Shown in pieces: positions 17,993 to 63,782 of a DNA stretch of 64,000 bases. Source of the stretch: Armatimonadota bacterium (GTDB taxonomy: Bacteria; Armatimonadota; UBA5829; DTJY01); assembly GCA_025358205.1 (NCBI GenBank), contig JANYKG010000119.1, positions 14,233 through 78,232 of the forward strand. The letters run 5' to 3'. The notes beneath the pieces are model-generated. The model saw nothing but the letters and a program-made list of their open reading frames with translations. It had not been told where the DNA came from and did no database searches. How positions within the stretch are numbered: the first letter of the stretch is position 1; every line of letters starts with the position of its first letter. A program made the translations under genes and the position numbers.

Positions 17993-18913
17993 GTGAAACA
18001 GAGAACCCGCATTGCCGTAGCGATTATGATCGGCTTGTACTCCTGGAATTTCTTCGCCGCATTGGCCTCTGTGCTCATGGAGAAGAGCCGTGGGACTCTT
18101 TTCGAGACAGCGGAGTTTGCGTTCGGTGCTATCCTCGGCGCGCTTCTCAATGCTGCCATTGTCATCGGCTGCATCTACCTGCTTAAGAACCGCAGATGGG
18201 CCTGGACCATGCTCGTCTGGCTGACGGCCGCCTTCACCTTAGGTATGCTGAGCACGGGTCTGTCAATGGTAACGGATATGACTTGGGGATCGTCTACAGA
18301 AGTCGGCTCAACCTTATTCCCCTGGCTCATGGTATTCCTGCCGATCCCCTTCGGTTGGGTAAGTATCCCAGCGCTTATCATTCTGCTCACCGATAAGCCG
18401 GTGGGGTGGAGAAAGCCCAAAGTCATACCTGTTTCTTCAACCCAGGTTCCCGGCGATCTTAAGCGGCGAACACGTGTGATCGCTTGGATATATCTCGTTG
18501 TGTCAGGCATGAGATTCTTCAGCCTGCCACTCTATATGGTCATGTTCAGAGATAAGCCCGGGTCATGGCTGTCCGGCTTACCGGAAGCCTTTCTTTGGGT
18601 GCTTTGGCTAGGACTAATGCAGAAGCGTATCTGGTCATGGTGGAGTTTGGTTGCAACATACGCCGGTTTGTCAATGTGGTATGTTTGGAGTATCGCACAT
18701 GCGCCCGCGTATTATGCCGCCCATCACAAGGTCGTCGCGCAGCCGTGGCATGCGATGCTCCCCGGCGCCGTAACGCTCATCCTGATGCTACTGATTCCCC
18801 TCTGGGCGCTGCTCACCGATAGACCATCCGGCTGGACCATTCCACCATCCTCTGCCGCCAAGGCTTCGGCGGACAAGTCCGAAATCCGAAATCCGCGATC
18901 CGAAATGAGGTAG
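17993..18913 (+). CDS. polytopic membrane protein, hypothetical
   Basis: 306 aa with multiple TM helices. The C-terminal tail SADKSEIRNPRSEMR is encoded by a [GAAATCC]n heptamer array. Confidence 0.5.
   Translation: MKQRTRIAVAIMIGLYSWNFFAALASVLMEKSRGTLFETAEFAFGAILGALLNAAIVIGCIYLLKNRRWAWTMLVWLTAAFTLGMLSTGLSMVTDMTWGSSTEVGSTLFPWLMVFLPIPFGWVSIPALIILLTDKPVGWRKPKVIPVSSTQVPGDLKRRTRVIAWIYLVVSGMRFFSLPLYMVMFRDKPGSWLSGLPEAFLWVLWLGLMQKRIWSWWSLVATYAGLSMWYVWSIAHAPAYYAAHHKVVAQPWHAMLPGAVTLILMLLIPLWALLTDRPSGWTIPPSSAAKASADKSEIRNPRSEMR
18878..18908. repeat. heptamer array [GAAATCC]x4
   Basis: tccgaaatccgaaatccgcgatccgaaatga, at the 3' end of membrane protein gene 17993-18913. Confidence 0.85.
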
Positions 18914-18915
18914 CC

Positions 18916-19989
18916 ATGTTCACACACAAATCATTCATCAGAGGCGGGAGTGGGGGATGGAGCCACTACCAGGGGCCGTTCCCGCATCAGCTTCCGGACG
19001 GGCGGGTGATCCTGCTCTATTGCGCGTACAAGGAGCAGGAGACCTTCCTGGACAACGCGATCTACTACTGCTTCACCACCGACAAAGGTGAGACGTGGAC
19101 ACCGCCCGAGATCTTCATGACCGCACCGGGCGCGAACGTATCTCACATCACCATGGTCAACCTGAAGGGCACGCAGAAAGTCCTCCTGTTCTGGCGCGAG
19201 ACCTTCTTCAAGGGCGCATCGGACGACAGCAAGACCGTGAGCAGCATCAAGGACTACGCGCGGTCGGTGGCCCGAATCTTCGTGCGCACGTCCGAGGACT
19301 CGGCACGCACGTGGAGCGCTCCCCGGCAGATTGACATGCTCGGCGAGGTCGCGCACGGGAGGTTCTTCTACGGAGGCCCGCTGGTCCCACAGCAGATCAT
19401 AAGTGGACGCATCATCCTGCCCTTCACCTATCTGCACGAGGACGGTTACAGTCACGTCGCGTCGTTCATGACCTCGAACGACAGCGGCGAGACCTGGGCG
19501 AAGGGTTACGACATCGTGATTCCGGTCCCGCGCGGCGCGATGGAACCGACGCCGGTCGAGCTTTCACGCGACCACCTCTACTGCCTCTTCCGCACGAAGA
19601 GCGGGTTTCTGTGGGAATCTACCTCATCGGACGGCGCGTTGACCTGGACCGAGCCGAAGCAGACAACCATCCCGTCGCCGGAGTCCATGCCGCAGCTCCT
19701 CAAGCTGAAGAGCGGGAACTGCCTGCTTGTGTGGAACAGCCAGTCGTCGGTGGAGAACTACCCGCGCTGGCCGTTGACCGCCGCACTCTCCACGGACGGG
19801 TGCAAGACCTGGGCGTTCAAGCGTGACATCGCCACGGAGACCGGTCGCAATCAGCTCAGCAACCACGGCATCACTCAGCTAGACGACGGGCGCATACTCC
19901 TCGCCCTCTCTCACTACCATGCTCTGAAGCCGACCTCGAGCGACATAGAGACGGTGGTTTTCGACGAGGATTGGGTAAAGAACGGCTGA
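18916..19989 (+). CDS. BNR/Asp-box repeat glycosidase (sialidase-like, GH33-like)
   Basis: 357 aa. Five SxDxGxTW-type Asp-boxes (TTDKGETWT, SEDSARTWS, SNDSGETWA, SSDGALTWT, STDGCKTWA). Confidence 0.7.
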   Translation: MFTHKSFIRGGSGGWSHYQGPFPHQLPDGRVILLYCAYKEQETFLDNAIYYCFTTDKGETWTPPEIFMTAPGANVSHITMVNLKGTQKVLLFWRETFFKGASDDSKTVSSIKDYARSVARIFVRTSEDSARTWSAPRQIDMLGEVAHGRFFYGGPLVPQQIISGRIILPFTYLHEDGYSHVASFMTSNDSGETWAKGYDIVIPVPRGAMEPTPVELSRDHLYCLFRTKSGFLWESTSSDGALTWTEPKQTTIPSPESMPQLLKLKSGNCLLVWNSQSSVENYPRWPLTAALSTDGCKTWAFKRDIATETGRNQLSNHGITQLDDGRILLALSHYHALKPTSSDIETVVFDEDWVKNG

Positions 19990-20026
19990 TCAGACAGCAG
20001 TACCATCTGACCATTCGACCATTTCC

Positions 20027-20752
20027 CTACGGCTTCTCCGTCCCTGCTTTCAGAGCATTCAGATACTCCTGCGCGCGCTTGATGCGTTCTTCGGTCACCG
20101 GATGAGTCAGGAATATCTGCTCGAACTTTGACGGATGGTTCTTCTGTATCTTCAGCAAAGTATCGAAGAAATTCACCAGTCCCTGAGCGTCCCAGCGCTG
20201 GCACCGATACATGTACTTCACCCCAAGCTTATCGGCCTGGAACTCCTGCACCCGGCTCCACCGCAAAAGCTGAACATTCGCAAAGACGCCTGCCACCTGC
20301 TGCACGTCGCCCTTGGTAAGTGTGCCTATCAGTATCTGCGCCTGAAGCTCGCGTCCCATCATCTGCGCATGGTGTCGCGCTGCTATGTGGCCTACCTCAT
20401 GCGCTATCACGCCCGCCAGTTCGTCCGGTTTGCCCTTAGTTTCGTCAATGAGTCCCTTGTATACATACACCCAACCACCGGGCAGCGACACCGCGTTCAC
20501 GTCCTTCTGGTCCAGTATCTTGAAGGTATATTCGAGATCGGGTCGGTCGGAACACTTCGCGATAGCCTGGCCCATGGTGTTCACCATGTCATTGAGCTGG
20601 GCGTCTTTGACTATGCCGTACTTGCTCTCGATCTCCTTGGATGACTGCTTGCCGATCTCTATCTCCTGGTTTGTGCTTACCATGCCTTTGGGATTGCATC
20701 CGCCAAGCACAACCGCCAGCAGTATCGCCGCCAAAATACTCAGGTGTTTCAT
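20027..20752 (-). CDS. M48 family zinc metallopeptidase lipoprotein
   Basis: Lipobox LGGC. Motifs HEVGHIAARH and a downstream E; the TPR-less BepA/YfgC-like peptidase core. SD GGGAGG. Confidence 0.8.
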   Translation of the reverse strand: MKHLSILAAILLAVVLGGCNPKGMVSTNQEIEIGKQSSKEIESKYGIVKDAQLNDMVNTMGQAIAKCSDRPDLEYTFKILDQKDVNAVSLPGGWVYVYKGLIDETKGKPDELAGVIAHEVGHIAARHHAQMMGRELQAQILIGTLTKGDVQQVAGVFANVQLLRWSRVQEFQADKLGVKYMYRCQRWDAQGLVNFFDTLLKIQKNHPSKFEQIFLTHPVTEERIKRAQEYLNALKAGTEKP

Positions 20753-20757
20753 GGGTA

Positions 20758-21165
20758 TTATCCTCCCTTGCCTTTTCCCTGCGATGAGTCCACGTTTTTC
20801 CAGAGTTTGTCTATCACGCCGCGGGTTTCGGTCAGCGCCCGCTCAACCTTGTTCAGTCCGTCCACGTAAGGTTGAGTGGAATCACGTCCGGCACTCTCCA
20901 GCATGGAAAGCCCTTTGTTCAGCTCGGCATCCGCGCGCTTGAAGTCGCCCTTCATGGCATATTTCTTTGCCAGGTCAATGTGCTTCTGAGCTTTGGCGAT
21001 AGGCGAGGAGCTTGCTGCAGACTTCCCGCTTTTCGCTGCCTGAAGCGCGGTGACCTGCGCGTTCAGCAACCTCACGTCGCGCCTTAACGCCGAGACCTGC
21101 TGCGCATTCCAGACTACAATTCCCAGCACAATCAGCGAGAAGATCACCGATATCAAGTGACGCAT
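20758..21165 (-). CDS. membrane-anchored coiled-coil protein, hypothetical
   Basis: 135 aa. N-terminal TM helix, coiled-coil-like heptads, Gly/Lys-rich tail. Good SD. Confidence 0.45.
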   Translation of the reverse strand: MRHLISVIFSLIVLGIVVWNAQQVSALRRDVRLLNAQVTALQAAKSGKSAASSSPIAKAQKHIDLAKKYAMKGDFKRADAELNKGLSMLESAGRDSTQPYVDGLNKVERALTETRGVIDKLWKNVDSSQGKGKGG

Positions 21166-21195
21166 AAGCCTACCCCCTCGTATACATTATACCAT

Positions 21196-23940
21196 TCATT
21201 TCTGTGCCGGTTCCGTGTAAGGTCCGGCTATCACCAGCGTGTACTTGTTCGGCCGCAGATATTTCTTCGCGGCGGCATTCACCTGCGCGAGCGTGACTCC
21301 TCTGTAAAGCGACTGGTATTTCCTGATGTAATCCATGCCCAGCCCGTAGAACTCCGCGCCGTGCAAGGTCTGCGCTATGGACGCGTTGTCCACAAGCCGC
21401 CTGGCCGGGAACGACCCCGCAATGTAGTCCACCGCGCGCTGCACCTGATCCGCTGTCTCACCATTGTCGCGAATCTTGGCAACCTCGTCCTTCAGTGCCT
21501 TGATGGCTTTGTCCACGTTCTTCGCATTTGTGCCCAGGTAGGCATACCACGCGCCGGCGCCGAGTCCCGCGTCGAAAGTGGTATAGACGTTGTAGACCAG
21601 ACCCATTTCGTCGCGTATCTTATATCCGAGCTGGCTGCCAAGCGCACCACCGCCGCCCAGAGAGTAGTTCATGATGGTCGCCGCGTAGAAATCGGGGTCG
21701 GATCGCTTGAGCTGACCGGCATAACCAAGCAGCACGCTGACCTGGGACTTATCCGGCATGGGGATGACCTTTTTCACATCTTCTGTCTGAACCGGAACAG
21801 TGGATATCTGCGGTCGTGTGGCTGGTCCCGTCGGCTGCCATTCGCCGAAGCGCTGCTTCACCCCTGCAACGGCGGCTTGCGGGTCTACGTCGCCTACTAT
21901 CACAAGGATAGCGGTTTGCGGGCCGTAGTGCGCCTTGTAGAAGGCAAGAACGTCATCCCTGGTGACGGCCTTGGTATCGGCGGTCTCTTCATCCAGGGTT
22001 AGCGCATGCAGCGGGTGGCCTTTGGGGAAGACCGCGCCTGAGAACGCGCGGAAAGCCATGGCGTCAGGGTCATCCTGCTCTTGCTTGATGCCGGAGAGCC
22101 TGCGCGCCGTCAGCTTGTCGAACTCGGTCTGCGGGAAGTTGGGGTTCCGCAGGGTGTCGGCCAGGATGTCCAGCAGCAGGTCGAAGTGCTTTGATAGAGA
22201 GCGTCCTGAGAACGAGGCGGACTCCGTGTCCGCGCTCGCCCCGATGCTCATGCCCACGAAGTCTTTCTCCTGCGCGATCTGGTCGGCTGTTCGCTTGGTG
22301 GTGCCTTTCTGCAGGAGTCCGGCGGTGATCTGCGCGAGACCGCTCTTGCCCTCGGGATCGAGAAGGCCGCCTGCGTTGAGGCTGCCCTGAATGGCCACGG
22401 TGGGGTTGCTTCTGTTCGGGTAGACGATCACCACCAGGCCGTTGTCGAGAACAACGCGGGTAGGCGCCACTAATTTCGGATTTCGGATTTCGGATTTCGG
22501 ATTTGTCCGGAGTTTGGAGTCTGGAACTTGGAATTTGGAACTTGGAGCTTGCAGGCTGTCCCGCTTGTACGCACAGTACCTGTTCCCATCCCACTGTTCA
22601 CTGTTCACTGATAACTGTTCACTGGTGCGCTGCTTCACCTCCGGCACGAAAGTCACCACATTCATATTCTTCTCGGTCAGGTACTTCTGCGCCACCCGCT
22701 GGATGTCCGCTTTGGTCACCTTACGCACGTTCGCGAGATATGTGTCCAGGAACCGCCATGACTTGATGGTCTCGAAGTAGCCCAACTGCTCAGCCTGATC
22801 CGTCACGCTGTCGTTCCCATAGATGAACGAGGACTCCAACTGGTTCACCGATTTCTGAAGCTCCTGGTCGGTGATCGGCTCGGATTTGATCTTCTCAATC
22901 TCGGCCAGCATCGCCGTCTGCACGTCCGCCAACTTCACGCCGTCCCGCGCCGTCGCACCCAACAGGAAAAGGTCGGGGTCGCGGTTGGTGGTCGAGGACG
23001 CATATTCAGAGGTGACGAGCTGGGTATCTACCAGTTCCTTGTACAGACGACTGCTCGCCCCGCTGTCAAGAACCATCTGAATGATATCGAGCGCGTATGA
23101 GTCAGGGGCGCCTATCGCCGGAGTGTGGTAGCCGATAAGTAGCCTATCTGCCGCGCCGGCTTTGGTTATCACCGATTCCTGCTTGCCGAATTGCGCCGCT
23201 TCAACTGAGGTTACCTTCGGAGGCGTCGGACCCTTTGGTATCTTGCCAAAATACTTGTTCACAAGCGCTAACGCCTTATTGGTATCGAAGTCGCCTACTA
23301 TCACCATCGTGGCGTTGCTCGGCCCGTAGTTCGATTTGTAATACTTGTAGAGGTCGTCGCGAGTCAGGCTGCGAACATCGTTGCTCCAGCCGATTGTGGG
23401 CCAGTGGTAAGGATGCTCCTTGAATGCCAGCGCGTACATCTGGTAGTACATCAGGCGGTCGGGGTCGTTCTCATCGCCCTCCAGTTCGGAGAGCACCACG
23501 GTTTGCTCGGACTTGAACTCCTTGGCGTCAATCACGCTGTTCACCATGCGGTCCGCCTCGATCTTCATGGCCAGTTCCAGGTTGTCGCTGGAGAGCGCCT
23601 CCCAGTAGTACGTCCAGTCCTTCCAGGTGGCCGCGTTGATGATGCCGCCCTTCTGCTGGATGAGCCTGTCTATGTCGCCCTTTTTGAGCGTCTTGGTGCC
23701 CTTGAACTGCATGTGTTCCAGCAGGTGAGACATGCCGGTCTTGCCGAACGGTTCGTTCCGCGAGCCGACCTTGTACCAGACGTTGAAAGCCACCACCGGC
23801 GCGGCATGGACTTCCTTGGTCAGCACCTTCAACCCGTTCGGCAGGACGGTCTCCTTGACCAGTGCATCGGCGCCGAAAGCAGACTGTGCGATGAGTAAGA
23901 TGACCCAGATGATAGTCAACCGAAAAGCTCGTGTTCTCAC
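21196..23940 (-). CDS. fused two-module M16 (pitrilysin/PqqL-like) zinc peptidase
   Basis: 914 aa. Signal peptide; inverzincin motif HLLEHMQFKGT in module 1; module 2 lacks HxxEH. The inter-module linker (SSKFQVPDSKLRTNPKSEIRNPK) is encoded by the heptamer repeat arrays at 22473-22552. GTG start. Confidence 0.8.
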   Translation of the reverse strand: MRTRAFRLTIIWVILLIAQSAFGADALVKETVLPNGLKVLTKEVHAAPVVAFNVWYKVGSRNEPFGKTGMSHLLEHMQFKGTKTLKKGDIDRLIQQKGGIINAATWKDWTYYWEALSSDNLELAMKIEADRMVNSVIDAKEFKSEQTVVLSELEGDENDPDRLMYYQMYALAFKEHPYHWPTIGWSNDVRSLTRDDLYKYYKSNYGPSNATMVIVGDFDTNKALALVNKYFGKIPKGPTPPKVTSVEAAQFGKQESVITKAGAADRLLIGYHTPAIGAPDSYALDIIQMVLDSGASSRLYKELVDTQLVTSEYASSTTNRDPDLFLLGATARDGVKLADVQTAMLAEIEKIKSEPITDQELQKSVNQLESSFIYGNDSVTDQAEQLGYFETIKSWRFLDTYLANVRKVTKADIQRVAQKYLTEKNMNVVTFVPEVKQRTSEQLSVNSEQWDGNRYCAYKRDSLQAPSSKFQVPDSKLRTNPKSEIRNPKLVAPTRVVLDNGLVVIVYPNRSNPTVAIQGSLNAGGLLDPEGKSGLAQITAGLLQKGTTKRTADQIAQEKDFVGMSIGASADTESASFSGRSLSKHFDLLLDILADTLRNPNFPQTEFDKLTARRLSGIKQEQDDPDAMAFRAFSGAVFPKGHPLHALTLDEETADTKAVTRDDVLAFYKAHYGPQTAILVIVGDVDPQAAVAGVKQRFGEWQPTGPATRPQISTVPVQTEDVKKVIPMPDKSQVSVLLGYAGQLKRSDPDFYAATIMNYSLGGGGALGSQLGYKIRDEMGLVYNVYTTFDAGLGAGAWYAYLGTNAKNVDKAIKALKDEVAKIRDNGETADQVQRAVDYIAGSFPARRLVDNASIAQTLHGAEFYGLGMDYIRKYQSLYRGVTLAQVNAAAKKYLRPNKYTLVIAGPYTEPAQK
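22473..22552. repeat. heptanucleotide tandem arrays: [ATTTCGG]x4 followed by [ARYTTGG]x6 (reverse complements GAAATCC / TTCCAAN)
   Basis: Seen directly; in frame within the M16 peptidase linker. Confidence 0.85.
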
Positions 23941-24806: not shown

Positions 24807-24898
24807 ACGGTTCAATTTCATAGACACAGCAAACGGGGCCTGCGGACATGTCCACAGACCCCGTTCTACTTTACCTCGCGAGTACACCCTTCACCGCG

Positions 24899-28484: not shown

Positions 28485-29262
28485 TCAGAAGAACGGAATC
28501 CCGGCAGTGGTACTCGCGGGTGCGCTTGCCGAGCCTGAGATGAAGGCGAAGTACGGCATAGAAAACCGCGCCGAGTTACCCATCGGCGGCAAGTCCATGA
28601 TTCAGCACGTGCTGGACGCGCTTCTTGCATCGCCAAGCGTGGGCGGCATCACGGTGGTCGGCGAGGTGGCATGCGAAGGCGCGGAGAGAATCATTCCGTC
28701 TGCGGGCAGCCTGGTAGACAACCTCCTGGCGGGGGTTCAGGCTTGCGGCAAAGAAGGCGGCATGGCGCTGATGGTGACATCCGATATCCCGATGCTGTCA
28801 TCAGAAGCCCTGGAGGATTTCATCGCCAAGTGCGGCGAGACCGAGGCGGATTTTTACTACGCAATCATATCCAAGGAGACGAATGACGTAAGGTTTCCCG
28901 GCATGGAACGAACCTACTGCAAGCTGGCGGAAGGCACGTACACCGGCGGAAACGTCATGCTGCTGAACTCACGGGTGATAGTGGAGAACGCCGGGCTGAT
29001 AACCGACTTGATGGCCGCAAGGAAGAAACCTCTCAAACTTGCTGGTATAATAGGAATGCGGTTCCTGGTTCGGGCGGTGCTTGCGCAGACCGTGTGGCCG
29101 GGCGCCCTGAAGATATCGTTCGCGGAGCAGACTGTGGGGCGAATAGTACATGCGAGGCTGAAGGCGGTTCCGACAACTTACGCCGAGATTGGGGCCGATG
29201 TGGACAAGATGGAGCACGTGGAGTTCGCAGAAGCGGCGATGGGGATGACCCGTGATAAGTGA
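28477..29262 (+). CDS. nucleotidyltransferase-fold protein (NTP_transferase superfamily, divergent Gly-rich loop)
   Basis: 261 aa. AVVLAG...ELPIGGKSMIQHVLD resembles sugar/cofactor nucleotidyltransferases but lacks the canonical GxGxR. Overlaps the ispE stop by 8 nt. Its stop TGA is embedded in a GTGATGAGTGA element. Confidence 0.45.
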   Translation: MADQKNGIPAVVLAGALAEPEMKAKYGIENRAELPIGGKSMIQHVLDALLASPSVGGITVVGEVACEGAERIIPSAGSLVDNLLAGVQACGKEGGMALMVTSDIPMLSSEALEDFIAKCGETEADFYYAIISKETNDVRFPGMERTYCKLAEGTYTGGNVMLLNSRVIVENAGLITDLMAARKKPLKLAGIIGMRFLVRAVLAQTVWPGALKISFAEQTVGRIVHARLKAVPTTYAEIGADVDKMEHVEFAEAAMGMTRDK

Positions 29263-29330
29263 TGAGTGAACAGCCCCGGGTGATCAGAGATGGCCTCGGA
29301 AGACAGTTCACGTATCACTCATCACTCATC
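29259..29330. repeat. inverted pair of GTGATGAGTGAAC elements forming a long hairpin at the 3' end of the NTP-transferase gene
   Basis: Left arm gtgatgagtgaacag, right arm cagttcacgtatcactcatcac. The stop codon TGA is part of the left arm. Confidence 0.75.
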
Positions 29331-29353
29331 AGAGAAGGTGACCTGAAATAGCA

Positions 29354-31249: not shown

Positions 31250-31460
31250 GGAGCCGTCTCAACCGCTCAACTTCCCTTCAGCTAGACCCAACTGCACACG
31301 GGATCTCATGTGATGAGACGATCATTTCGCACAAAACGGCCAGCCTGCTAAACGGGTCACCAACTTTCTTTGGCGAATTTTGTAGAAATGATCCGAATGG
31401 CACGATTCTTGCAGGTATTATTACCAGAAAGAAACATTCTTTCTCCTTCCATACCTTGAG

Positions 31461-31491
31461 CCCATTGCAACACGCAGTGGGCCATTTTTTT
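31461..31491 (+). terminator. intrinsic terminator-like hairpin (CCCATTGC-AACAC-GCAGTGGG) followed by a T7 run
   Basis: Read directly. Downstream of dxs (stop 31249). Confidence 0.5.
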
Positions 31492-31613
31492 GCGCTAGAC
31501 TGAAGGTGAAAACAAGTTTTTTCTCGCAATGCGCGGAAAAACGGGGCGAATGGCATGATTCTTGCAGGTATTATTACCAGAAAGAAACATTCTTTCTCCT
31601 TCCATACCTTGAG

Positions 31614-31644
31614 CCCGCTGCAACACGCAGTGGGCCATTTTTTT
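31614..31644 (+). terminator. second copy of the terminator-like hairpin plus T7
   Basis: Stem CCCGCTGC/GCAGTGGG with one mismatch, then TTTTTTT. Confidence 0.45.
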
Positions 31645-31685
31645 GGCAGGAAGGCTTGCTTCTGCGGTGCCACCTACGGGGTAAC

Positions 31686-40122: not shown

Positions 40123-40153
40123 GATATCGGCAGTCTAGCACATCCTAGGGAAA

Positions 40154-40190
40154 ACTTCCAACATTCAACTTCCAACCTCCAACATCGAAG
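40154..40190. repeat. heptamer array [TTCCAAC]x5 (cttccaacattcaacttccaacctccaacatcgaa)
   Basis: Seen directly; intergenic, upstream of the 40282 start. Confidence 0.85.
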
Positions 40191-42042: not shown

Positions 42043-42067
42043 TGAGTGACGAGTGATGAGTGAACTG
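42039..42067. repeat. GTGATGAGTGA-family element (ctgatgagtgacgagtgatgagtgaactg) with TGA in all three frames
   Basis: At the stop of the DUF4838-like gene. Confidence 0.8.
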
Positions 42068-45490: not shown

Positions 45491-46420
45491 ATGCCTGTTC
45501 CCGATTTCCAGCAGTTCTTCAGACCCATTCTGATTCTGATGAGCGATGGTGTTCCTCGCACTGCAGACGATGTCGAACAGGTGCTCGTAACGCAGTTCAA
45601 GATAGCCCCAGAAGACCAGGATGAATTGCTGCCGAAGGTCAACCGGACTCGGCTTCGCAGCAATGTGCTCTGGGCGCTTACCTATCTCAAACAGGCAGGC
45701 CTGTTGCTAGCGCCTAAGCGTGGGGTCACCCAAATTACCTCCCGCGGCACTGATTATGCTAAGCGGGCTCCGAACCCTTTGAAGATACCAGCTTTGACCG
45801 AGTTTCCGGAATTCGTCGAGTTCCAGAGAAGATCCAAACCTACTAAGAAACCATCTGAACCCAAACAGAAACTGCTACTGGACGACATCGTTAATGCTGA
45901 AACGCCCGAGGAACGGATAAGTTCGGCCCACTTGGAACACAACGCCGCACTCGCGCAAGAAGTACTGAGTAGTGTTAAGAGCATGTCTCCGGCATTCTTT
46001 GAGCAACTGATCGTAGACCTGATGCTGAGACTAGGATACGGGGGCGCTGGGGCGGAGTCCGGCCAGACACTTGGTAAGTCGGGCGATGGTGGCGTAGATG
46101 GTGTCATAAGCCAGGACAAACTTGGGCTTGAGAAAATCTACCTTCAGGCTAAGCGGTGGACTGACGTGAAGGTGGGAAGCAAGGACGTGCAGGCGTTCGT
46201 AGGTGCGCTGACCGGGCAAGGTGCGCTAAAGGGAGTATTCATCACGACTTCCGCGTTCACCAAAGAGGCGACCCAATACGTCAAGAATATCCCAAACATC
46301 AAGCTGTCTCTGATAGATGGTCTTCAACTTGCTGACCTTATGATAGAATATGACCTTGGAGTTGCCGTCGTGGCGCGCTACGATGTCAAGCGTGTGGATT
46401 CCGATTTCTTCGGCGACTGA
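45491..46420 (+). CDS. mrr: Mrr-type modification-dependent restriction endonuclease (Mrr_N winged helix plus Mrr_cat)
   Basis: FEQLIVDLMLRLGY...GKSGDGGVDGVI...YLQAKRW catalytic signature and N-terminal wHTH. Confidence 0.85.
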   Translation: MPVPDFQQFFRPILILMSDGVPRTADDVEQVLVTQFKIAPEDQDELLPKVNRTRLRSNVLWALTYLKQAGLLLAPKRGVTQITSRGTDYAKRAPNPLKIPALTEFPEFVEFQRRSKPTKKPSEPKQKLLLDDIVNAETPEERISSAHLEHNAALAQEVLSSVKSMSPAFFEQLIVDLMLRLGYGGAGAESGQTLGKSGDGGVDGVISQDKLGLEKIYLQAKRWTDVKVGSKDVQAFVGALTGQGALKGVFITTSAFTKEATQYVKNIPNIKLSLIDGLQLADLMIEYDLGVAVVARYDVKRVDSDFFGD

Positions 46421-46959: not shown

Positions 46960-46993
46960 CGACCAGATCGCTAGCCTCGTGTATCGTACTCGT

Positions 46994-47072
46994 TGATCCT
47001 ACTCGTACTCGGTCTCTTCGAACTAGAATCATTCATGAGTACGAGTACGATATGCGAGTCACGCCTATCAAC
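46994..47072. repeat. GAGTACGAGTA-family inverted repeat (ctactcgtactcgg ... atgagtacgagtacg)
   Basis: Seen directly. The 15-mer cgttgatcctactcg recurs inverted at 63662-63676. Confidence 0.7.
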
Positions 47073-48372: not shown

Positions 48373-48400
48373 ATCTGATATCTGAGATTTGAAATCATCT
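48373..48400. repeat. heptamer array (atctgatatctgagatttgaaatca) of the GAAATCY family
   Basis: Seen directly; intergenic upstream of the GH-like gene. Confidence 0.7.
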
Positions 48401-48436
48401 TCGGAAAGAGCGGACGGGGACGTCCGCGCTCCCATG

Positions 48437-52184: not shown

Positions 52185-53534
52185 ATGACTGTTGCTACCA
52201 GAGCGCTGATAATCTGTCTGATCGTGTTGTGCGCGTCCGCATTCGCGGCTGAGGCCGTCGCGCCTTCGGACGTGAAGGTGACGGCGGAGGGCTTTGCAGC
52301 GTGTCCATCGGGCGCGGACAAGTCATCGTGCCGACACGCCGCGCTGGCGGATGCACTGAGACGCGCGGTGGAGAACGCGGTCGGCGTGACGGTGGAAGGC
52401 CAGACCCGCATCAAGAACTTCATGTCAGCGGAGGACACGGTGCGCATGAGTTCGGAAGGTTTCGTCCGCGATTACGCGATTGTGGGTGAGGGACTTGCGG
52501 ACGGCATGTACCGCGTGAAGATTGATGCCGTCGTCGCGCCGGGTAAGCCCGCGGATTCGCTCAAGCGCGCGTGTACCAAGCTGCGTGACGGTCCCAACCC
52601 CAAGTTCGGCGTGGAGATCGAGGGCCTGGCTGGAACCAAGATATCGAACGAACTGGCGGCTCTCGGTCTGACTGTCACCACAAAGAAGCCTTCAATCATC
52701 ATCAAAGGGTCGGTCAGTACATCACCGGCAGGCGAGCGGTTTGGCGAGATGATCTTCTACGCATACGGCGGGTCTACTGAGTTCTCCGTGGTGGAGTCAA
52801 AATCCGGCATGGTCATCCCGTCGGTTGACGTTACTCTCGCACAGCCGATACCCGGTGACAGCAACGACGAGTCCAAGAGCGGCGCCGTGCGGGCGGTATG
52901 CTCCCAGTGGATCGAGCGCAACATACCAATCATCGCAAGCGCGCTGCTTGACCCCGGTGAGCCTGTGGATATCCCCGCCGATACTCACATATCCTCCGAG
53001 GCTATCGAGTTCACGAGCGATCCATCGGCCTCGAACCTGATTCCCTCGGTGGGCGAACGGCTCATCCTAAAGGCCGAGGATATCTCCGCACTGGCTGCCA
53101 AGCTGAAGACCGCGGTTGATGCTTCTCAGGAGTTCGGAACGAAGCCGGTGGACATAGCTGTTTCGCGGTTCAAGGGGATCGGCATATCCAACCCGGCCTC
53201 AGTGGAGGACGTGCTGGAGGATTTAGGCACCGCGCTGGTGAAAACCGGAGTGTTTCGACTTGTGGAACGAACGCAGCTTGACCAGGTGCTTCGCGAGTTG
53301 AAGATACAGAGTTCCGCGCTTGTGGACAGCGCGACTGCCAAGAAGCTCGGCAAGCTGGTCGGCGCGCGGGCGGTGCTGGTCGGCAGCATTTCCGACCGCA
53401 AGGACTGCGTGGTTATCAACGCCAGGCTGATCAACACCGAAACCGGGTTGGTGGGCATTGCGGAAAGCATTGTGATAGACAAAGAGACTGAGCCGAAACC
53501 GAGAATCCTTCGCGCCGGTCCAGGGGGACTCTAA
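52185..53534 (+). CDS. secreted two-domain protein: LPP20/FlgP-like N-terminal domain plus CsgG/LpoB-fold C-terminal domain
   Basis: Signal peptide. LRRAVENAVGVTVEGQTRIKNFMSAEDTVRM fits the LPP20 pattern. The C-terminal LVERTQLDQVLRELKIQSSALVD...GKLVGARAVLVGSIS fits the CsgG-family pattern. Confidence 0.5.
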   Translation: MTVATRALIICLIVLCASAFAAEAVAPSDVKVTAEGFAACPSGADKSSCRHAALADALRRAVENAVGVTVEGQTRIKNFMSAEDTVRMSSEGFVRDYAIVGEGLADGMYRVKIDAVVAPGKPADSLKRACTKLRDGPNPKFGVEIEGLAGTKISNELAALGLTVTTKKPSIIIKGSVSTSPAGERFGEMIFYAYGGSTEFSVVESKSGMVIPSVDVTLAQPIPGDSNDESKSGAVRAVCSQWIERNIPIIASALLDPGEPVDIPADTHISSEAIEFTSDPSASNLIPSVGERLILKAEDISALAAKLKTAVDASQEFGTKPVDIAVSRFKGIGISNPASVEDVLEDLGTALVKTGVFRLVERTQLDQVLRELKIQSSALVDSATAKKLGKLVGARAVLVGSISDRKDCVVINARLINTETGLVGIAESIVIDKETEPKPRILRAGPGGL

Positions 53535-53575
53535 TGTTGAATGTTGAATGTTGGACGTTGAGTGTTGGACGTTCC
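53534..53575. repeat. heptamer array [RYGTTGR]x6 (reverse complement TTCCAAC family)
   Basis: atgttgaatgttgaatgttggacgttgagtgttggacg. Confidence 0.85.
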
Positions 53576-58942: not shown

Positions 58943-58955
58943 CAAGGTTGAGGAC

Positions 58956-59948: not shown

Positions 59949-60037
59949 CCGCGTCGGACGTTGTGTGATTGCTTGACCGTACTCACCTTCCGATGTACGA
60001 TGTATGTAGGTTCGCATTCGTCAGGTGTGGAGGCATC

Positions 60038-60259
60038 ATGCATCAGGTAACAATCGGTGATAAGTACCAGGTGACTATCCCGAAGGAGATTCGGGAGAAG
60101 CTGGGTATCAAGCCGGGACAGAGAGTTCTGGTGACTGCGTCAGGCGGCGGCATCACGATTCAGCCCGAACCCGGCGGCGGATCCGATGACCGGTTGACCC
60201 AGATCACTCATCACGTATCACGCAGCCCTGACACCTGGAACCGGACACCCGGAACCTGA
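60038..60259 (+). CDS. AbrB/MazE/SpoVT-family swapped-hairpin DNA-binding protein (antitoxin-like), orphan
   Basis: MHQVTIGDKYQVTIPKEIREKLGIKPGQRVLV is the classic looped-hinge-helix pattern. The ATG at 60038 gives about 74 aa. Confidence 0.6.
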   Translation: MHQVTIGDKYQVTIPKEIREKLGIKPGQRVLVTASGGGITIQPEPGGGSDDRLTQITHHVSRSPDTWNRTPGT

Positions 60260-60260
60260 A

Positions 60261-60303
60261 GAGAGTACGAGTAAGAGTACGAGTAGGAGTAAGAGTACGA
60301 GGG
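60261..60303. repeat. hexamer tandem repeat [GAGTAM]n (gagagtacgagtaagagtacgagtaggagtaagagtacgagg)
   Basis: Seen directly, between the abrB-like gene and hydF. Confidence 0.8.
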
Positions 60304-60316
60304 GTACAGGCAAGAC

Positions 60317-61624
60317 ATGGGAATGAATCAGACGCCATCCGGGGAGCGGATGCATATATCCATATTCGGGCGGAGGAACTCGGGCAAGAGCAGCCTGATC
60401 AATGCGCTGACGGGCCAGAAGCTCGCCATCGTGTCAGACGTCGCCGGCACCACAACCGACCCGGTCGCGAAAGCGATGGAGATACTGCCGATTGGGCCGG
60501 TGGTTATCACCGATACCGCCGGGATTGACGACGTGGGGGCGCTCGGCGAGCTGCGGGTGGAGAAGACGCTGCGGGTACTGGAGAAGACCGACCTGGCCGT
60601 TCTCATCATCGAGGCAGGGAGCGAACCCGGCGAGTGGGACAACAAGCTCGCGGGCATGGTAAAGGAGCGCAAGCTCCCCATGCTGGTCGTCGAGAACAAG
60701 ATTGATCTGGTGCGGACACGTGATTTGAAATCTGAAATTCGAGATTTGAAATCCCAAGTCGGGACCTGGGCCGAAGCCCACGAACTGCCCTACGTCGCCG
60801 TTTCCGCCACGACCGGCGAGAACATCGAGGGCCTGAAGCAGTGCCTCATCACCAATGCGCCCGAGGGGTTCGCCGAGCCGACCATCATCGGCGACCTGAT
60901 CAACCCCGGCGACATCGTTGTCCTCGTCGTCCCCATAGACAAGGCCGCGCCGAAGGGACGGCTCATCCTCCCGCAGGTGATGACCCTCCGCGACGCGCTG
61001 GATAACGACGCATACTCGGTAGTCGTGAAAGAACGCGAGTTGAAGAACGCGCTGGAGAACCTGAAGAACAAGCCCAAGATCGTCATCACCGACTCACAGG
61101 CGTTCCTGAAGGTCGCTGCGGACACCCCGAAAGACATCTGGATGACCAGTTTCTCCATCCTCATGGCGCGGTACAAGGGCAACCTGGAGGAGTTCGTCGC
61201 GGGCGCTCGTGCCCTCAAGAACCTGAAGATCGGCGACAAGGTGCTCATCTCTGAGGGCTGTACGCACCATCGGCAGGGCGATGACATCGGCAAGGTGCAG
61301 ATTCCGCGGTGGCTGCGTCAGGCAGTCGGCGGTGAGCTGGAGTTCGGCTTCAGCTCGGGCATCGAGTTCCCGGACGACATCGCGAAGTACAACGTCATCA
61401 TCCACTGCGGCGCGTGTACACTCAACCGGCGCGAGGTGTGTTTCCGGCAGAAGTCGGCCAAGGACGCAGGTATCCCGATGACTAACTACGGCGTCACCCT
61501 GGCTTATGTACACGGCATACTGGACCGCGCACTCGATCCGTTCCCGTTGGCAAAGGCGCTGTGGGAAGAGTCACCGGATAAGCCCGTGAGACCGAAGCTC
61601 AAGATCCAGCGAACGAGTGGCTAG
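60317..61624 (+). CDS. hydF: [FeFe]-hydrogenase maturation GTPase HydF
   Basis: G1 GRRNSGKSS, G3 DTAG, G4 NKID. The C-terminal cluster motif CTHH...HCGAC and a long block alignment with Thermotoga HydF (PQVMTLRDALD...VVKERELK...ITDSQ...PMTNYGV). Confidence 0.85.
   Translation: MGMNQTPSGERMHISIFGRRNSGKSSLINALTGQKLAIVSDVAGTTTDPVAKAMEILPIGPVVITDTAGIDDVGALGELRVEKTLRVLEKTDLAVLIIEAGSEPGEWDNKLAGMVKERKLPMLVVENKIDLVRTRDLKSEIRDLKSQVGTWAEAHELPYVAVSATTGENIEGLKQCLITNAPEGFAEPTIIGDLINPGDIVVLVVPIDKAAPKGRLILPQVMTLRDALDNDAYSVVVKERELKNALENLKNKPKIVITDSQAFLKVAADTPKDIWMTSFSILMARYKGNLEEFVAGARALKNLKIGDKVLISEGCTHHRQGDDIGKVQIPRWLRQAVGGELEFGFSSGIEFPDDIAKYNVIIHCGACTLNRREVCFRQKSAKDAGIPMTNYGVTLAYVHGILDRALDPFPLAKALWEESPDKPVRPKLKIQRTSG
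60742..60775. repeat. heptamer array (gatttgaaatctgaaattcgagatttgaaatccc), GAAATCY family, in frame within hydF
   Basis: Encodes RDLKSEIRDLKSQ between the G4 and G5 motifs. Confidence 0.8.
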
Positions 61625-61627
61625 TCC

Positions 61628-62643
61628 TCAGCAAAGCAAACCGGACTTCTCGGCGAACTCCCGGAGGTCTACCTCGCTGCCGGTGCGGGACGATTCGATG
61701 ATTCCGAACGCCATCATCAGCGTCTTCACGTTGTCCGCAAGCGAGCACTCCGGTTCACGGTTCTCTTCGATGGACGCGGTGAACTCGCGCAGCACGTCAT
61801 ACCGCGTGTGCGTGGCGTTGATCTCCGGCCCGGCGGTATCCGTCCGCCCGCCGTCCGCGAAGACGCTCGACTTAACGCCGTCAGTCCAGAGCGAGCCTTT
61901 CTCGAACTCCAGGTCCCAATGGCCGAACCAGTCGGTTTCGTTCCGCCGCGCCGACCAGCCCGAGAAGTAGTTCACGCGCTTGCCGCCGGGGAAGGTGAAC
62001 AGAGACTCCACGCAGCCGTTGCACTTGCACCAACTCCAAGGCGGGTTCCAGCCCTTCGCCAGCACGCTCTCAGGCTCCGAGCCGATGACAAAGCGCATGG
62101 TGTCCAGGTGGTGGATGCTCATGGCGAGAATCATGGCGTCTTCCATGGTGGCGACATGGGCGCCGGGCATGTTGAGAGCCATGTGATATAGGACATTCAT
62201 GTATCCGAGGTCGCCCAACCCACCGGCGACGACCGCCTCGCGCATGGCCTTCGCGCCGGGGAACCACCGGTAGCCCTGTCCGACCATCAGCTTCACTCCG
62301 CAGGTCTTGTGCCGATCCAGAACCATGCGAAGCTCGTCGGTAGTGGAAATTAGTGGTTTTTCCGCCAGCACGTGAAGCCCGGCATCCATGGCGGCGGTGA
62401 TGTCATCTGCGCGCGCGGCAATAGGCGGTGTGAAGATGAATGCGGCATCGGCCTTAGTCTGCCGTATCGCATCGCCCAGGGTCTTGTGGCACCGGCTCGG
62501 ATCAGCCCCGAGTTCGTCCACAGCCCGTTTCAGCGCGGTTTCGTTCACATCCACCCATGCGGATATCTCCCATCCGCTATCGCGCAGAACCTGCACCCAT
62601 GACCATCCCCATCCGCCCAGTCCGACGACTATTCCTTTCATGC
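61628..62643 (-). CDS. Gfo/Idh/MocA family NAD(P)-dependent oxidoreductase
   Basis: MKGIVVGLGGWG Rossmann start and EKP motif. SD GGAGGTG 7 nt upstream of ATG 62643. Confidence 0.8.
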
Positions 62644-62834
62644 CTGCACCTCCGTTGCACCAGTTTAGCAGAGTGCATCGCCTGTGAAAAGCCATCGCCG
62701 ATATTGTGGATCGAAAGGCAAATGCCAGGTTTTCTTAACTTCGGCAGATAATTTTCTTGAAATAGGTGTATAATAGAGATAACAGAGGTGTCGGCGAAGG
62801 TCATCGGGCAACCGTGCCTCGGAGGAATCCCACT

Positions 62835-63527
62835 ATGTATATCATGAGTCCCGACCGCATGGCGCTGAACCTGGATGCGCTGAATGATGCGCTGCTCTCC
62901 GACAAAAAGCTTACGAAGGCTGAGAAAGAACCGGCCGCGAAGTGGATTGCCGGACGCCAGGGATTGAGGTTTTCCTACGCGGGAATGCCAGCGCCTACGG
63001 ACATCGAATATACCGAAGGTGTGCGAGTCTACACCGGCGAGCCAGCCAAACCCGGCGTAACCACCGGTCACATCCTGGGTGAAGAAGCCTGCCGTGTGCT
63101 GATAGTCCTGAATATTGACGATCATTTCGTGGAGGGCGCTCTGGCAAAGGCAACCCAGGGGATGATGAGCAAACTGCTCCTACCGTCTGGTGAGCCGAAC
63201 CCCGAAACCATGGGCGAGTACTGCTGCGGCATCTGCACTGTAGCATACTGGCGGCACCTGTCCGTCGGCGGTCTGCAGGATTCTAAGACGCGCCTGGCCA
63301 GAGGCATGGAGTTGCTGAAAGAGAATCGCAAAGGCAACGGCCAGTGGAAGAAGTTTCCGTTCTACTACACGCTACTTGCTATCAGCGAGGTTAATACGCC
63401 CGCAGCGGTTGAAGAGATGCAGTACGCTGCGCCGGTTCTTGAGCGGTTCCTAAAGCGCGCCGAGGTAGACGACATCTACGAACAGCGCCGCCGCGCCCTC
63501 GCCGCCCGCGTGCTAGCGAAGATCTAG
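62835..63527 (+). CDS. hypothetical protein
   Basis: 230 aa. SD GGAGGA 8 nt upstream. No family recognised. Confidence 0.45.
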   Translation: MYIMSPDRMALNLDALNDALLSDKKLTKAEKEPAAKWIAGRQGLRFSYAGMPAPTDIEYTEGVRVYTGEPAKPGVTTGHILGEEACRVLIVLNIDDHFVEGALAKATQGMMSKLLLPSGEPNPETMGEYCCGICTVAYWRHLSVGGLQDSKTRLARGMELLKENRKGNGQWKKFPFYYTLLAISEVNTPAAVEEMQYAAPVLERFLKRAEVDDIYEQRRRALAARVLAKI

Positions 63528-63712
63528 TAATCCAGTTACTCCCTTCTCCTCTTATCGGGTCGCACCCGCAAGCCGCGCGGCGGTTGTGCGCGGCGAAAGG
63601 GAGAAGGGCCGGGGATGAGGGTCTGCTCCCGCCGAGTACCCTTCGACAAGCTCAGGACAGGCGAGTAGGATCAACGAGTAAGGCTCACGAGAATGGTCCC
63701 GCCATCAGCCAT

Positions 63713-63782
63713 AGACCATTCTGACCATTCTGACCATCTGACCATTTCCCCGGTAGACCATTCCCCGTGGACCATTCTCTCA
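63713..63782. repeat. tandem GACCATTCT-like repeats immediately upstream of the promoter -35
   Basis: agaccattctgaccattctgaccatctgaccatttcc...gaccattcc...gaccattctc. Confidence 0.75.

Follow-up and report, generated by a model that had tools for sequence, protein, structure and literature searches.

What are the short tandem heptanucleotide repeats that recur along 64 kb of the genome of an uncultured Armatimonadota bacterium (contig JANYKG010000119.1 of assembly GCA_025358205.1; the whole stretch is referred to below as the window), and why do so many of them sit at the ends of genes? Interspersed heptamer repeats, i.e. the short tandemly repeated repetitive (STRR) sequences and their relatives, have been on record since 1990 and occur in excess in many bacteria, and we know of no function or spreading mechanism that has been established for them. 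The cyanobacterial STRR sequences were reportedly described by Mazel et al. in 1990.

The elements in the window are a known, STRR-like kind of repeat in a new host lineage, built from previously undescribed unit families. The main family has the form (AATCCGM)4-AAT and the second one the unit TTCAASG/TTCCAAC; their sites are gene boundaries and the disordered linkers and tails of proteins. We lean, with slightly more confidence than doubt, towards reading the loci as copies of several short interspersed tandem-heptamer families that are STRR-like and under constraint at the level of RNA or translation. For two unit families, a set of regularities could be defined: four is the modal number of units, flanking sequences are unrelated, distant lineages carry the repeats, conservation exceeds that of neutral sites, and placement follows a strand rule. 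These regularities argue against pure slippage noise and against phase variation. The four-unit mode, the cross-phylum presence and the strand rule at stop codons also make the function of such repeats directly testable.

Detection and enrichment of heptamer arrays

Tandem Repeats Finder (TRF) detected 17 arrays of period 7 (or 14) in the window; all window figures refer to these 64 kb of one Armatimonadota genome. At period 7, seven strong arrays stand against 0.03 expected from Markov-3 shuffles of the window, and the same test returned zero or one array at each of the other periods from 2 to 18, the harmonic 14 excepted. The starting point of this work, a sequence-only reading according to which tandem heptamers recur throughout the stretch, therefore described something real and in fact understated it, period 7 alone being enriched. 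Intergenic DNA matches itself at a lag of 7 nt with an identity of 0.291 (vs about 0.25), coding DNA having a 3-nt periodicity only, and 10 of 32 intergenic spacers carry a period-7 signal compared with 0.6 in coding controls. The end of an open reading frame (ORF) lies at most 60 nt away for 10 of the 17 arrays (expected 15.6%, p = 6e-5), and about 14 gene or domain boundaries in the window bear heptamer arrays.

With 0.11 arrays per kb, the window is about 20-fold denser than mixed-phylum control loci (DnaE loci; 0.006/kb over 1.41 Mb). Loci related to the M16 peptidase gene of the window contain 32 period-7 arrays vs 1-11 at other periods. The low-GC, HIP1-rich loci among these are cyanobacterial and provide a positive control: they carry classical STRR-type arrays as well as TAACTGA arrays (units TAACTGA, CCCCAGT and CAACAGT) at 0.1-0.27 arrays/kb with the same detector, a range that includes the window and bears out the description of its repeats as STRR-like.

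The unit families found in the window are AATCCGM (= GAAATCC), TTCCAAC/TTCAACG, GAACAGT, ATCACTC/TGAGTGA, TGCAGAC, GGTGTCA/GACACCC, GAGTAC(G) and GACCATT; at least six families have 2-6 copies each within 64 kb. The GAAATCC and TTCCAAC types that the sequence-only reading took for the two recurring units are thus present, but they are joined by further families. Single-linkage clustering of units at one mismatch chained unrelated units and was rejected. A typical element has about four units and spans roughly 30 nt; most arrays are imperfect (70-92% matches), and TRF found one perfect tract of 4.6 units. Outside arrays, k-mer enrichment of the units is modest and confined to the GAAATCC, ATCACTC, TCCGCAC and GACCATT classes (z 3.5-5.6), with no enrichment of the TTCCAAC k-mer in the window.

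Among the loci named at the outset, 18878-18908 corresponds to TCCGAAA x4.1 at 18878-18906 (TRF and direct reading), and the adjacent unit types at 22473-22552 to a perfect ATTTCGG x4.6 (22473-22504) adjoining TGGAACT x4.3 (22514-22551). Likewise, 40154-40190 is AACTTCC x4.4 at 40153-40183, and 53534-53575 is AATGTTG x5-6 at 53533-53573. The arrays at 48373-48400 and 60742-60775 are real but degenerate (TRF score <30), the first being kept in a relative and the second representing a 21-nt (7-codon) tandem duplication within hydF. The stretch 63713-63782 is not heptameric, since its periods are 9 and 14-15 (GACCATTCT), and actual copy numbers are about 4-6 instead of the 4-10 originally claimed. 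Previously overlooked were 22592-22624 (CACTGTT x4.7, in the same linker as 22473-22552), 1271-1308, 2716-2809, 3460-3486, 6199-6233, 10400-10427 and 10712-10753, as well as 17762-17881, 20002-20026, 29252-29331, 42040-42065, 46985-47059 and 60200-60301.

Chance origin and assembly artefact are ruled out by the shuffles and by independent assemblies. Two Logan assemblies from other samples (L001 and L085; L-numbers label fetched comparison loci or contigs) are 100% identical over five arrays, and the suspicion that the arrays are assembly artefacts can thus be dismissed.

A strand rule at stop codons and within genes

The regularities of the AATCCGM family were derived from 114-150 non-redundant loci among the matches listed. 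Their flanks are unrelated between loci, the unit number has its mode at four (three units, 37; four, 90; five, 16; six or more, 7), and the element ends in AAT, giving about 31 nt. As gene context from longest ORFs was too noisy in GC-rich contigs, a codon-model strand caller was used instead, whose right/wrong/no-call counts on three contigs were 391/2/7, 291/0/9 and 210/2/88.

Of 40 arrays whose G-rich strand is transcribed into the mRNA sense, 26 begin between -6 and +12 nt from the upstream stop codon; for arrays with the C-rich strand in the mRNA, the count is 5 of 39 (Fisher p = 2e-6). The preference is reversed within genes: at co-directional loci, 13 of 27 C-rich-sense arrays vs 2 of 25 G-rich-sense arrays lie within one continuous ORF (p = 0.002), where the C-rich sense encodes ..NPKSEIRNP.. 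or ..PQSAIRNP.., i.e. the heptapeptide repeats KSEIRNP / PQSAIRN. The after-stop rule also holds for single arrays (24/38), and inverted pairs have the G-rich arm first in a ratio of 12:1. The TTCAASG family (family B, AATCCGM being family A) has a strand rule after stops as well (10/22 vs 1/18), with a broader mode at four units. The window itself fits the rule, with the G-rich strand 0 nt past the TAG of a synthetase gene and the C-rich strand translated in the M16 peptidase and in a membrane-protein tail. The earlier remark that arrays occur both intergenically and inside ORFs can thus be refined, given that in-ORF copies lie in disordered or terminal segments and on the strand that yields hydrophilic peptides. 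All frames of AATCCGM arrays are free of stop codons. Distances from array to start codon in the window are 9 nt (18878), 15 nt (60262) and 16 nt (6199), while for AATCCGM at large the next start is mostly 14-86 nt away, three being longer; the tight relation is to the upstream stop codon. This strand-specific placement points to a constraint acting on RNA or translation.

The M16 linker and exact copies

Across Armatimonadota, a double M16 peptidase is conserved (window 21196-23940, minus strand; about 900-1000 aa with two M16 + M16_C pairs per chain). The linker between its halves, of 59-115 residues, consists almost wholly of translated 7- and 8-nt arrays in 25 Armatimonadota homologues (54-72% identity), with the peptides KSEIRNP, STFNVQR, QSTVNSQ, ESGRVGE and MGVWEYGS. 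Read at the DNA level in L166-L169, the underlying units are (GAAATCC)n, (TTCAACG)n, (CAGTCAA)n and (TATGGGAG)n, together with 8-mers such as GGGAGAGT (L168) and GAGTGGGC (L169). The unit number in the linker ranges from 2 to 9 between species, which means that over long times the arrays expand and contract with the reading frame kept.

Copies at unrelated places can be exact. Within the window, 27 nt at 3460-3486 equal 29304-29330, and inverted copies of 40 nt lie 3.5 kb apart. The 33 nt at 18856-18888 recur in the M16 linker of another organism (L166 1810-1842), including 21 nt of non-repeat flank, and 21 nt are common to L168 and L169. In 14 arrays comprising 60 units, the TCC core never changes, and positions 2 and 7 vary.

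Such copies invite the view that the repeat is a selfish mobile micro-element, comparable to REP/REPIN or to the small dispersed repeats of cyanobacteria, whose strand rules merely reflect purifying filters against harmful peptides or C-rich RNA, e.g. through Rho loading. The unrelated flanks and discrete size, the exact copies at non-orthologous loci and array-adjacent insertions that are absent from relatives all speak for it, as does the near restriction of in-ORF copies to the hydrophilic-peptide strand; the 12:1 arm order and the scarcity of C-rich untranslated copies would fit avoidance of rut-like RNA. However, the window ORFs include no transposase or RAYT, single arrays are direct repeats instead of palindromes, orthologous arrays persist over large divergence, and a filter alone does not predict the tight abutment of 0-12 nt to stop codons. 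Rho avoidance as a filter accounts for family A and the 12:1 order but fails for family B, whose after-stop strand is not the G-richer one. We consider a selfish element possible, though doubtful.

Conservation in relatives

In related contigs, which were found through protein clusters, arrays recur at the same places. The array before the BNR_2 gene has four units in the window, L082 and L083 alike. It is identical at 33/35 positions between the window and L083 (4-fold-site identity 0.58; P = 2e-6), at 28/35 between the window and L082 (0.56; P = 3e-3) and at 30/35 in a third comparison (0.67; P = 1e-2), and unit-specific variants common to the orthologues indicate that positional orthology is preserved. 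The five-unit array directly past the synthetase stop is orthologous in the window, L082 and L083, and the array downstream of dnaE (48373-48400) is kept in L084. For the GAAATCC array of the M16 linker, 34/39 positions are identical to L169 (4-fold identity 0.45; P = 6.5e-8), and for the 8-mer array downstream of the M48 peptidase gene, which has an orthologous 4-unit array in L169, 28/39 (4-fold 0.38; P = 1.6e-5). In five of seven comparisons, array identity (0.72-0.94) significantly exceeds 4-fold-site identity (0.38-0.67), with P from 1e-2 to 6.5e-8; in the other two, with array identities of 0.77 and 0.68, the difference was not significant (P about 0.15). Relatives with a 4-fold identity of only 38-68% thus retain arrays in place, and three of these arrays have an unchanged number of units. 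The elements are stable, not hypervariable, and conserved above neutral sites.

These data bear directly on phase variation, which the sequence-only reading had suggested and for which it had proposed a comparison of copy number among strains. The arrays would then be contingency loci, in which slippage of units shifts frames or promoter spacing and switches expression on and off. Gain or loss of a unit in the M16 linker, in hydF or in the N-terminus of a lipoprotein would indeed shift the frame, because 7 is not a multiple of three; moreover, one array is perfect over 4.6 units, and the M16 linker varies from 2 to 9 units between species. Yet the arrays are short, at about four units, and mostly imperfect (70-92% matches), and their neighbours are housekeeping rather than surface or restriction genes. 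Independent assemblies from other samples are identical, and three arrays keep their unit number in L082, L083 and L084 together with positional variants, although these relatives are nearly saturated at 4-fold sites (identity only 0.56-0.68). Finally, unit numbers over more than 100 unrelated loci peak at four instead of being spread. A switching function is highly improbable on these grounds.

GC-rich hairpin inserts of 31-35 nt lie beside arrays at 18840-18877 and 48408-48433; the first is absent in L082/L083, and the second, of 31 nt, in L084. One of these inserts, together with its array, has the exact 33-nt match in L166 noted above. Small dispersed repeats of cyanobacteria, said to have been described by Elhai et al. 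in 2008, reportedly nest in heptamer arrays, and the window inserts resemble these. The array that follows the synthetase gene (window 1271-1308 vs L082 4518-4556 and L083 370-410) marks the exact point at which synteny with L082 and L083 is broken. Past the break, L082/L083 have a vapBC-like pair, a membrane-protein gene and the BNR_2 gene, the latter two of which lie 16 kb away and on the other strand in the window. This break and the exact non-orthologous copies of 27-33 nt are compatible with recombination.

Spread beyond Armatimonadota

Querying with (KSEIRNP)6 led to contig L170 of an Acidobacteriota metagenome-assembled genome (MAG; GCA_036006905.1), which carries 12 period-7 arrays in 12.5 kb. 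At L170 8750-10180, two spacers consist nearly entirely of AATCCGM/ATTKCGG arrays of up to 15 units, inverted sets included; the latter score in Rfam as generic long hairpins, and a 66-aa 'hypothetical protein' has been called over one array. In IMG/VR, AATCCGM x3 occurs in at least 120 contigs and TTCAASG x3 in 77, compared with 3 contigs for the composition-matched control TACCGAM x3, so that the heptamer units are 25- to 40-fold or more over this control; ATCACGM x3, related to a window family, occurs in 32 contigs. By our own rough estimate, fewer than one would be expected by chance. The fetched IMG/VR loci contain further arrays, 420 and 263 at period 7 vs 19-42 at periods 6, 8 and 9. 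AATCCGM and TTCAASG were never found together in these loci (0/120 in L171-L290 and 0/77 in L326-L402, among the matches listed), although each of them occurs in the window as well as in M16 linkers of related genomes. This suggests that the two families differ in host range.

Hence, the statement that such density is unusual outside heterocystous cyanobacteria is only partly sustained. The roughly 20-fold excess over mixed-phylum controls supports it, but the same units occur in an Acidobacteriota MAG and at least about 200 IMG/VR contigs, and passages in PMC4692102 and PMC4679880, citing Mrazek 2007, report over-representation of heptamers in Xanthomonas, Burkholderia, Actinobacteria and Beggiatoaceae. 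Our text search of the literature found neither 14-mers of the units nor heptamers of Armatimonadota.

The distribution of units also bears on the simplest explanation, in which the arrays are a neutral by-product of replication slippage: functionless and immobile, with a 7-nt bias set by the polymerase, and gathering wherever sequence is unconstrained. Heptamers are reported to be the most abundant long class of simple sequence repeats (SSRs) in many bacteria, for which a polymerase-footprint explanation is relayed in passages of PMC4679880 and PMC4692102, citing Mrazek 2007. The location of arrays in spacers and disordered linkers is as expected from this, and super-periods of 14 nt suggest local duplication. 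However, neutral slippage should amplify arbitrary heptamers, whereas a handful of units turns up again across loci, genomes and phyla, with a 25- to 40-fold or larger excess over the composition-matched control. It likewise leaves unexplained that exact copies include non-repeat flank, that unit numbers peak at four without decay, that placement is strand-specific and that array identity is above that of 4-fold sites. Slippage noise alone is quite unlikely to be the answer.

RNA folding and a possible mode of action

The two strands differ in their predicted folding. As RNA, (AUUKCGG)4AUU is predicted to fold at -6.4 to -8.1 kcal/mol, compared with 0 to -1.6 kcal/mol for the C-rich strand. 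The 80 nt past stop codons are predicted to fold at -21.6 vs -11.1 kcal/mol. Inverted arrays of the window fold with z = -2.7 to -4.0. The idea that the arrays are unstructured standby sites for ribosomes is true for C/A-rich-sense arrays only (unpaired 0.5-0.8 vs 0.39), G-rich and inverted ones being paired.

Under the reading that we favour, i.e. STRR-like families constrained at the RNA or translation level, arrays might originate by slipped-strand mispairing with its reported heptamer bias, a proposal of Mrazek 2007 as conveyed in passages of PMC4679880 and PMC4692102. They could then spread by copy-and-paste, via ectopic conversion or an unknown mobilisation, and would survive only where both transcript and protein tolerate the element. 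Copies within ORFs would be passengers filtered for harmless peptides, as the other strand would give ISDFGFR or IADCGLR. Those after stop codons, on the other hand, may act as RNA, forming small intercistronic or 3'-end structures: a G.U-paired hairpin with two units per arm in single arrays and a Watson-Crick hairpin in inverted ones. A G.U hairpin of this kind, with an unstructured complement, would account for the strand rule and also for the mode at four units. Located 0-12 nt past the stop, it would be opened by the terminating ribosome. Its effect could be protection or processing of the mRNA upstream, or an adjustment of how the following cistron is translated, without serving as a phase-variation switch. 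A precedent is provided by the STRR hairpins of hupS/hupL, which have been proposed to stabilise transcripts or to couple translation (PMC2670836).

Several observations weigh against this reading, in which the RNA-level role is inferred. Single-array hairpins are no better than same-composition shuffles (z = -0.8 to -1.4), and neither G.U pairing nor C/G content explains the strand rule of family B. No mobilising enzyme is apparent, given that neither a transposase nor a RAYT was seen among the window ORFs. Non-orthologous family members are as similar to each other (31/35 and 29/35) as orthologues are, and for this reason 'conservation' may reflect a family consensus kept by copying and not site-specific selection; what is maintained could be this consensus, through selection or copying. 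In addition, the strand caller was trained on the codon usage of the window and validated on two other contigs, and IMG/VR contigs may include host DNA. Lastly, the orientation of AATCCGM arrays with respect to flanking genes is balanced overall (27 vs 25), which leaves room for a role at the level of DNA.

Such a role could be that of duplex sites, which would either be bound in tandem by a regulatory or nucleoid protein or shape rearrangement of the genome as hot spots of recombination (Chi-like, or patches of homology). Besides the lack of an overall transcription bias, AATCCGM arrays are found in divergent more often than in convergent spacers (11 vs 4), the invariant TCC(G) core recurs at a 7-bp spacing, the array behind the synthetase gene coincides with the loss of synteny to L082/L083, and 40-nt inverted copies lie 3.5 kb apart; the TTTTGAT heptads of the ctxAB promoter set a precedent (bioRxiv 10.1101/2021.05.14.444153). 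This is hard to reconcile with the strand-specific context at stops and in ORFs, though, and many copies sit in coding linkers or in operon spacers of 30-60 nt. Also, a 7-bp spacing would place successive sites on different faces of the helix. We regard duplex sites as very unlikely.

A bolder version of the RNA-level reading is that (AATCCGM)4 and its sister families form a discrete, sequence-specific cis element found across soil and sediment phyla (Armatimonadota, Acidobacteriota and others) and mobile DNA. It would be read by a conserved factor or made by dedicated copying. Acting strand-specifically behind stop codons, it would be a 3'-end or intercistronic signal of a new class that serves termination, processing or the coupling of translation. 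This is unlikely; if true, it would give the 35-year-old STRR puzzle a testable function.

Comparison with known repeat systems

STRR sequences (mentioned in PMC2670836 and PMC4692102) are the closest match. Shared features are tandem 7-bp units, several families per genome, an interspersed and mostly intergenic distribution that extends into genes, possible intercistronic hairpins as in hupS/hupL, and a comparable density with the same detector. The CAACAGT unit of L166 even occurs in a cyanobacterial locus (L144). This one exact unit (vs about 0.2 expected) and two near matches do not, by a hand estimate, raise the vocabulary shared with cyanobacterial STRRs above chance. Differences lie in the short window arrays of about four units, in the main units AATCCGM and TTCAASG, which are not classical STRRs, and in the host. 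The latter belongs to Armatimonadota and not to the heterocystous cyanobacteria, a limit that is taxonomic and not mechanistic, and it has no HIP1 enrichment (0.02/kb in the window vs 0.6-1.3/kb in cyanobacterial loci).

The TAACTGA repeats of Beggiatoaceae, Cyanobacteria and Bacteroidetes (MacGregor 2015, PMC4679880) are similar in that short sets of 2-6 copies of one heptamer occur at hundreds of loci, where their position with respect to gene ends is fixed and the neighbouring genes belong to no particular functional class. They also have a patchy cross-phylum spread, no known transfer mechanism and proposed post-transcriptional roles. Their unit is a different one, however, and their sets, which include stop codons, mostly precede start codons by a few nt, whereas AATCCGM is stop-free in every frame, abutting stops in one strand and being translated in the other. 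The GGGAATC / GGGGAYT repeats of Xanthomonas and Nostoc (Rehm et al. 2015, PMC4692102) also form intergenic arrays including inverted pairs, occupy the same loci in related species and have no tie to gene classes. Unlike these, which have runs of three or four G, fold into G-quadruplexes and vary extensively in length between close relatives, the window units (AATCCGM, TTCCAAC, GAACAGT, ATCACTC) contain at most GG or CC and thus lack the runs of three or more G (or C), at least four of them spaced 7 nt apart, that a G-quadruplex of this type requires, and array length is kept in the relatives compared.

REP/REPIN elements (PMC3116915) and the small dispersed repeats of cyanobacteria resemble the window elements in being extragenic, about 20-40 nt long and present in many copies at gene ends, as singlets and inverted hairpin-forming doublets; the window also has small hairpin inserts beside its arrays. 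In contrast to these imperfect palindromes, single arrays of the window are direct repeats, hairpins of this kind arise only from inverted array pairs, many copies are translated, and no RAYT was seen among the window ORFs. Phase-variable SSRs of host-adapted pathogens (PMC12721329) share short tandem units that are not a multiple of three and lie in 5' regions or ORFs, but the window tracts are short, imperfect and length-stable, next to housekeeping genes, whereas phase variation would call for long perfect tracts within or ahead of genes with surface, virulence or restriction functions. Finally, Borg tandem repeats (PMC9879509) are likewise located at gene ends or in ORFs and translated into low-complexity hydrophilic linkers. 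Their in-ORF units are multiples of three and fast-evolving; here, old 7-nt units yield 7-residue peptide repeats.

Elements along the window

The first AATCCGM-family array (1271-1308, minus strand; TGCGGAG TGCGGAG TTTGGAC TGCGGAA GTCGGAT), with the G-rich strand in the mRNA, begins 0 nt past the TAG stop codon of a class II aminoacyl-tRNA synthetase gene (1309-2703, minus). The spacer that precedes this gene contains an inverted pair on the minus strand (2716-2809), made of a TGCAGAC-type array (2716-2752) and a GTCTGTA-type array (2781-2809), with a long imperfect hairpin (RNA fold -42.7 kcal/mol, z = -2.7). A divergent spacer contains the ATCACTC-family element CAGTTCACGTATCACTCATCACTCATC detected by TRF (3460-3486, plus). 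AGGTGTT x4.4 (6199-6233, plus) fills the 54-nt spacer between the stop of a SpoIIE/GAF gene (6195) and the ATG of the next ORF (6250). TGCGTAC x3.7 (10400-10427, minus), within the N-terminal half of a KduI/IolB-like ORF, is the sole clear array in an apparently ordinary coding stretch. Mutually pairing GGTGTCA / GAACCCG / GACACCC arrays (10712-10753, minus) occupy the 69-nt spacer between two co-directional genes as a hairpin (-32.7 kcal/mol, z = -3.4).

The DUF6785 gene is followed by three elements on the plus strand (17762-17881): a TGAGTGA-family copy that provides the DUF6785 stop codon (17762-17783), a TTCC/GGAA-type hairpin (17793-17830) and the 8-mer array CTCCCATA x2.2 (17864-17881). 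The reverse complement of this last array corresponds to the TATGGGAG arrays that relatives carry in their M16 linkers; 17765-17860 folds with z = -3.1. The (GAAATCC/AATCCGM) x4 array at 18878-18906 is preceded by a window-specific insert of 35 nt (together 18835-18906, plus) with ACCATTC-like units and the small hairpin GCCGCCAAGGCTTCGGCGG. This array is translated as the C-terminal tail of a membrane protein, ..KSEIRNPRSEMR*, and ends 9 nt before the BNR_2 ATG. A convergent spacer contains, immediately behind the M48 peptidase stop codon, an 8-mer array with the mRNA sense AATGGTCG AATGGTCA GATGGT (20002-20026, minus).

Three in-frame arrays (22473-22624, minus) make up the linker between the M16 peptidase halves of one 914-aa ORF, namely, in gene sense, GAACAGT x4.7 (22592-22624), TTCCAAR x4-6 (22509-22551) and the perfect GAAATCC x4.6 (22473-22504), which encode ..SEQLSVNSEQ..SSKFQVPDSKLRTNPKSEIRNPK... 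Upstream of dxs, TGAGTGA (29252-29271) and ATCACTC (29304-29331) arrays form an inverted pair (29252-29331, plus) and a hairpin (-43 kcal/mol, z = -4.0), with the TGAGTGA arm providing the stop codon of the upstream gene. AACTTCC x4.4 (40153-40186, plus), in the divergent spacer between a Peptidase_MA gene and a DUF4838 glycosidase-like gene, is predicted to be unpaired as RNA (0.80). The first TGA of TGATGAG x3.4 (42040-42065, plus) is the DUF4838 stop codon; this array has stops in all three frames and lies 20 nt ahead of the next ATG.

Inverted GAGTAC(G)-type arrays form a hairpin at 46985-47059 (minus), at the site of which L084 has a PIN_3/RHH toxin-antitoxin pair. A degenerate 4-unit array (48373-48400, minus; mRNA sense GATTTCA AATCTCA GATATCA) is located past the dnaE stop and ahead of the ribosome-binding site that belongs to the following gene. 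AATGTTG/GACGTTG x5-6 (53533-53573, plus), the inverted counterpart of 40153-40176, starts at the TAATG overlap of a CsgG-like and an LPP20-like gene and encodes residues 1-13 of the lipoprotein precursor. Between a MazE-like ORF and hydF, three adjacent elements (60200-60301, plus) comprise an ATCACTC-family copy (60200-60223), GACACCY/GGAACCK x4 (60230-60256) and the hexamer array AGAGTA x6.7 (60262-60301), all identical in the independent assembly L001. Within hydF, a 21-nt tandem duplication encoding RDLKSEI / RDLKSQV from GAAATCY-like heptamers (60719-60760, plus) lies in a segment 8 residues longer than in Thermotoga HydF structures. Last, a GAGTA-family copy (63662-63691) precedes the GACCATTCT array (63714-63779) at 63662-63779 (plus).

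Taken together, spacers between genes are filled by arrays at 6199, 10712, 42040, 48373 and 60230-60301, and TGAGTGA-type arrays, with stops in all three frames, supply the stop codons of three genes (17762-17783, 29252-29271, 42040-42065). Because arrays furnish these stop codons and the TAATG stop/start overlap at 53532-53536, gene ends in this genome are partly set by repeats. For annotation, this means that arrays create in-frame low-complexity linkers, tails and N-terminal extensions as well as start and stop codons, thereby affecting gene calls in these genomes.

Host lineage and gene neighbourhood

The best DnaE relatives, at 59-71% identity, carry the label of Armatimonadota MAGs, and so do the M16 homologues. 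Genes of the window are ordinary chromosomal ones, including dnaE, the class II synthetase gene, ksgA, ispE, dxs, hydF, glycosidases, ECF sigma factors, Mrr and toxin-antitoxin genes, and the direct neighbours of arrays are housekeeping genes (dnaE, the synthetase gene, hydF, dxs, M16) and glycosidases. Canonical sigma-70 promoters and intrinsic terminators are as frequent at arrays as in shuffles. With Rfam 15, only two tRNAs reach the gathering score in the window, and no meaningful sub-threshold matches over arrays were found in the window or in L170.

Toxin-antitoxin modules (MazE-like, VapBC/PIN, RHH + PIN_3, HicAB) repeatedly adjoin arrays, at window 59969-60259, L082 4591-5226, L084 3167-3812 and L167 4972-5411. 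Two defence-like loci are unrelated to the repeats: an Mrr_cat + STAND NTPase (nSTAND5) + TPR protein at 11857-14295 (minus) and a separate full Mrr restriction endonuclease at 45491-46420 (plus).

Finally, two tandem units of 99 nt (31394-31492 and 31547-31645, plus), 97% identical and 153 nt apart, contain no credible ORF. Each folds at -30.9 kcal/mol (z = -4.3), with a single-stranded, anti-Shine-Dalgarno-like UCUCCUUCC and a 3' GC-rich hairpin followed by a U-run, and both have sub-threshold Rfam matches to mmgR/suhB (E = 0.02-0.07). Owing to the combination of fold, UCUCCUUCC motif, terminal hairpin with U-run and mmgR/suhB matches, the units at 31394-31645 look like a pair of tandem small-RNA genes.

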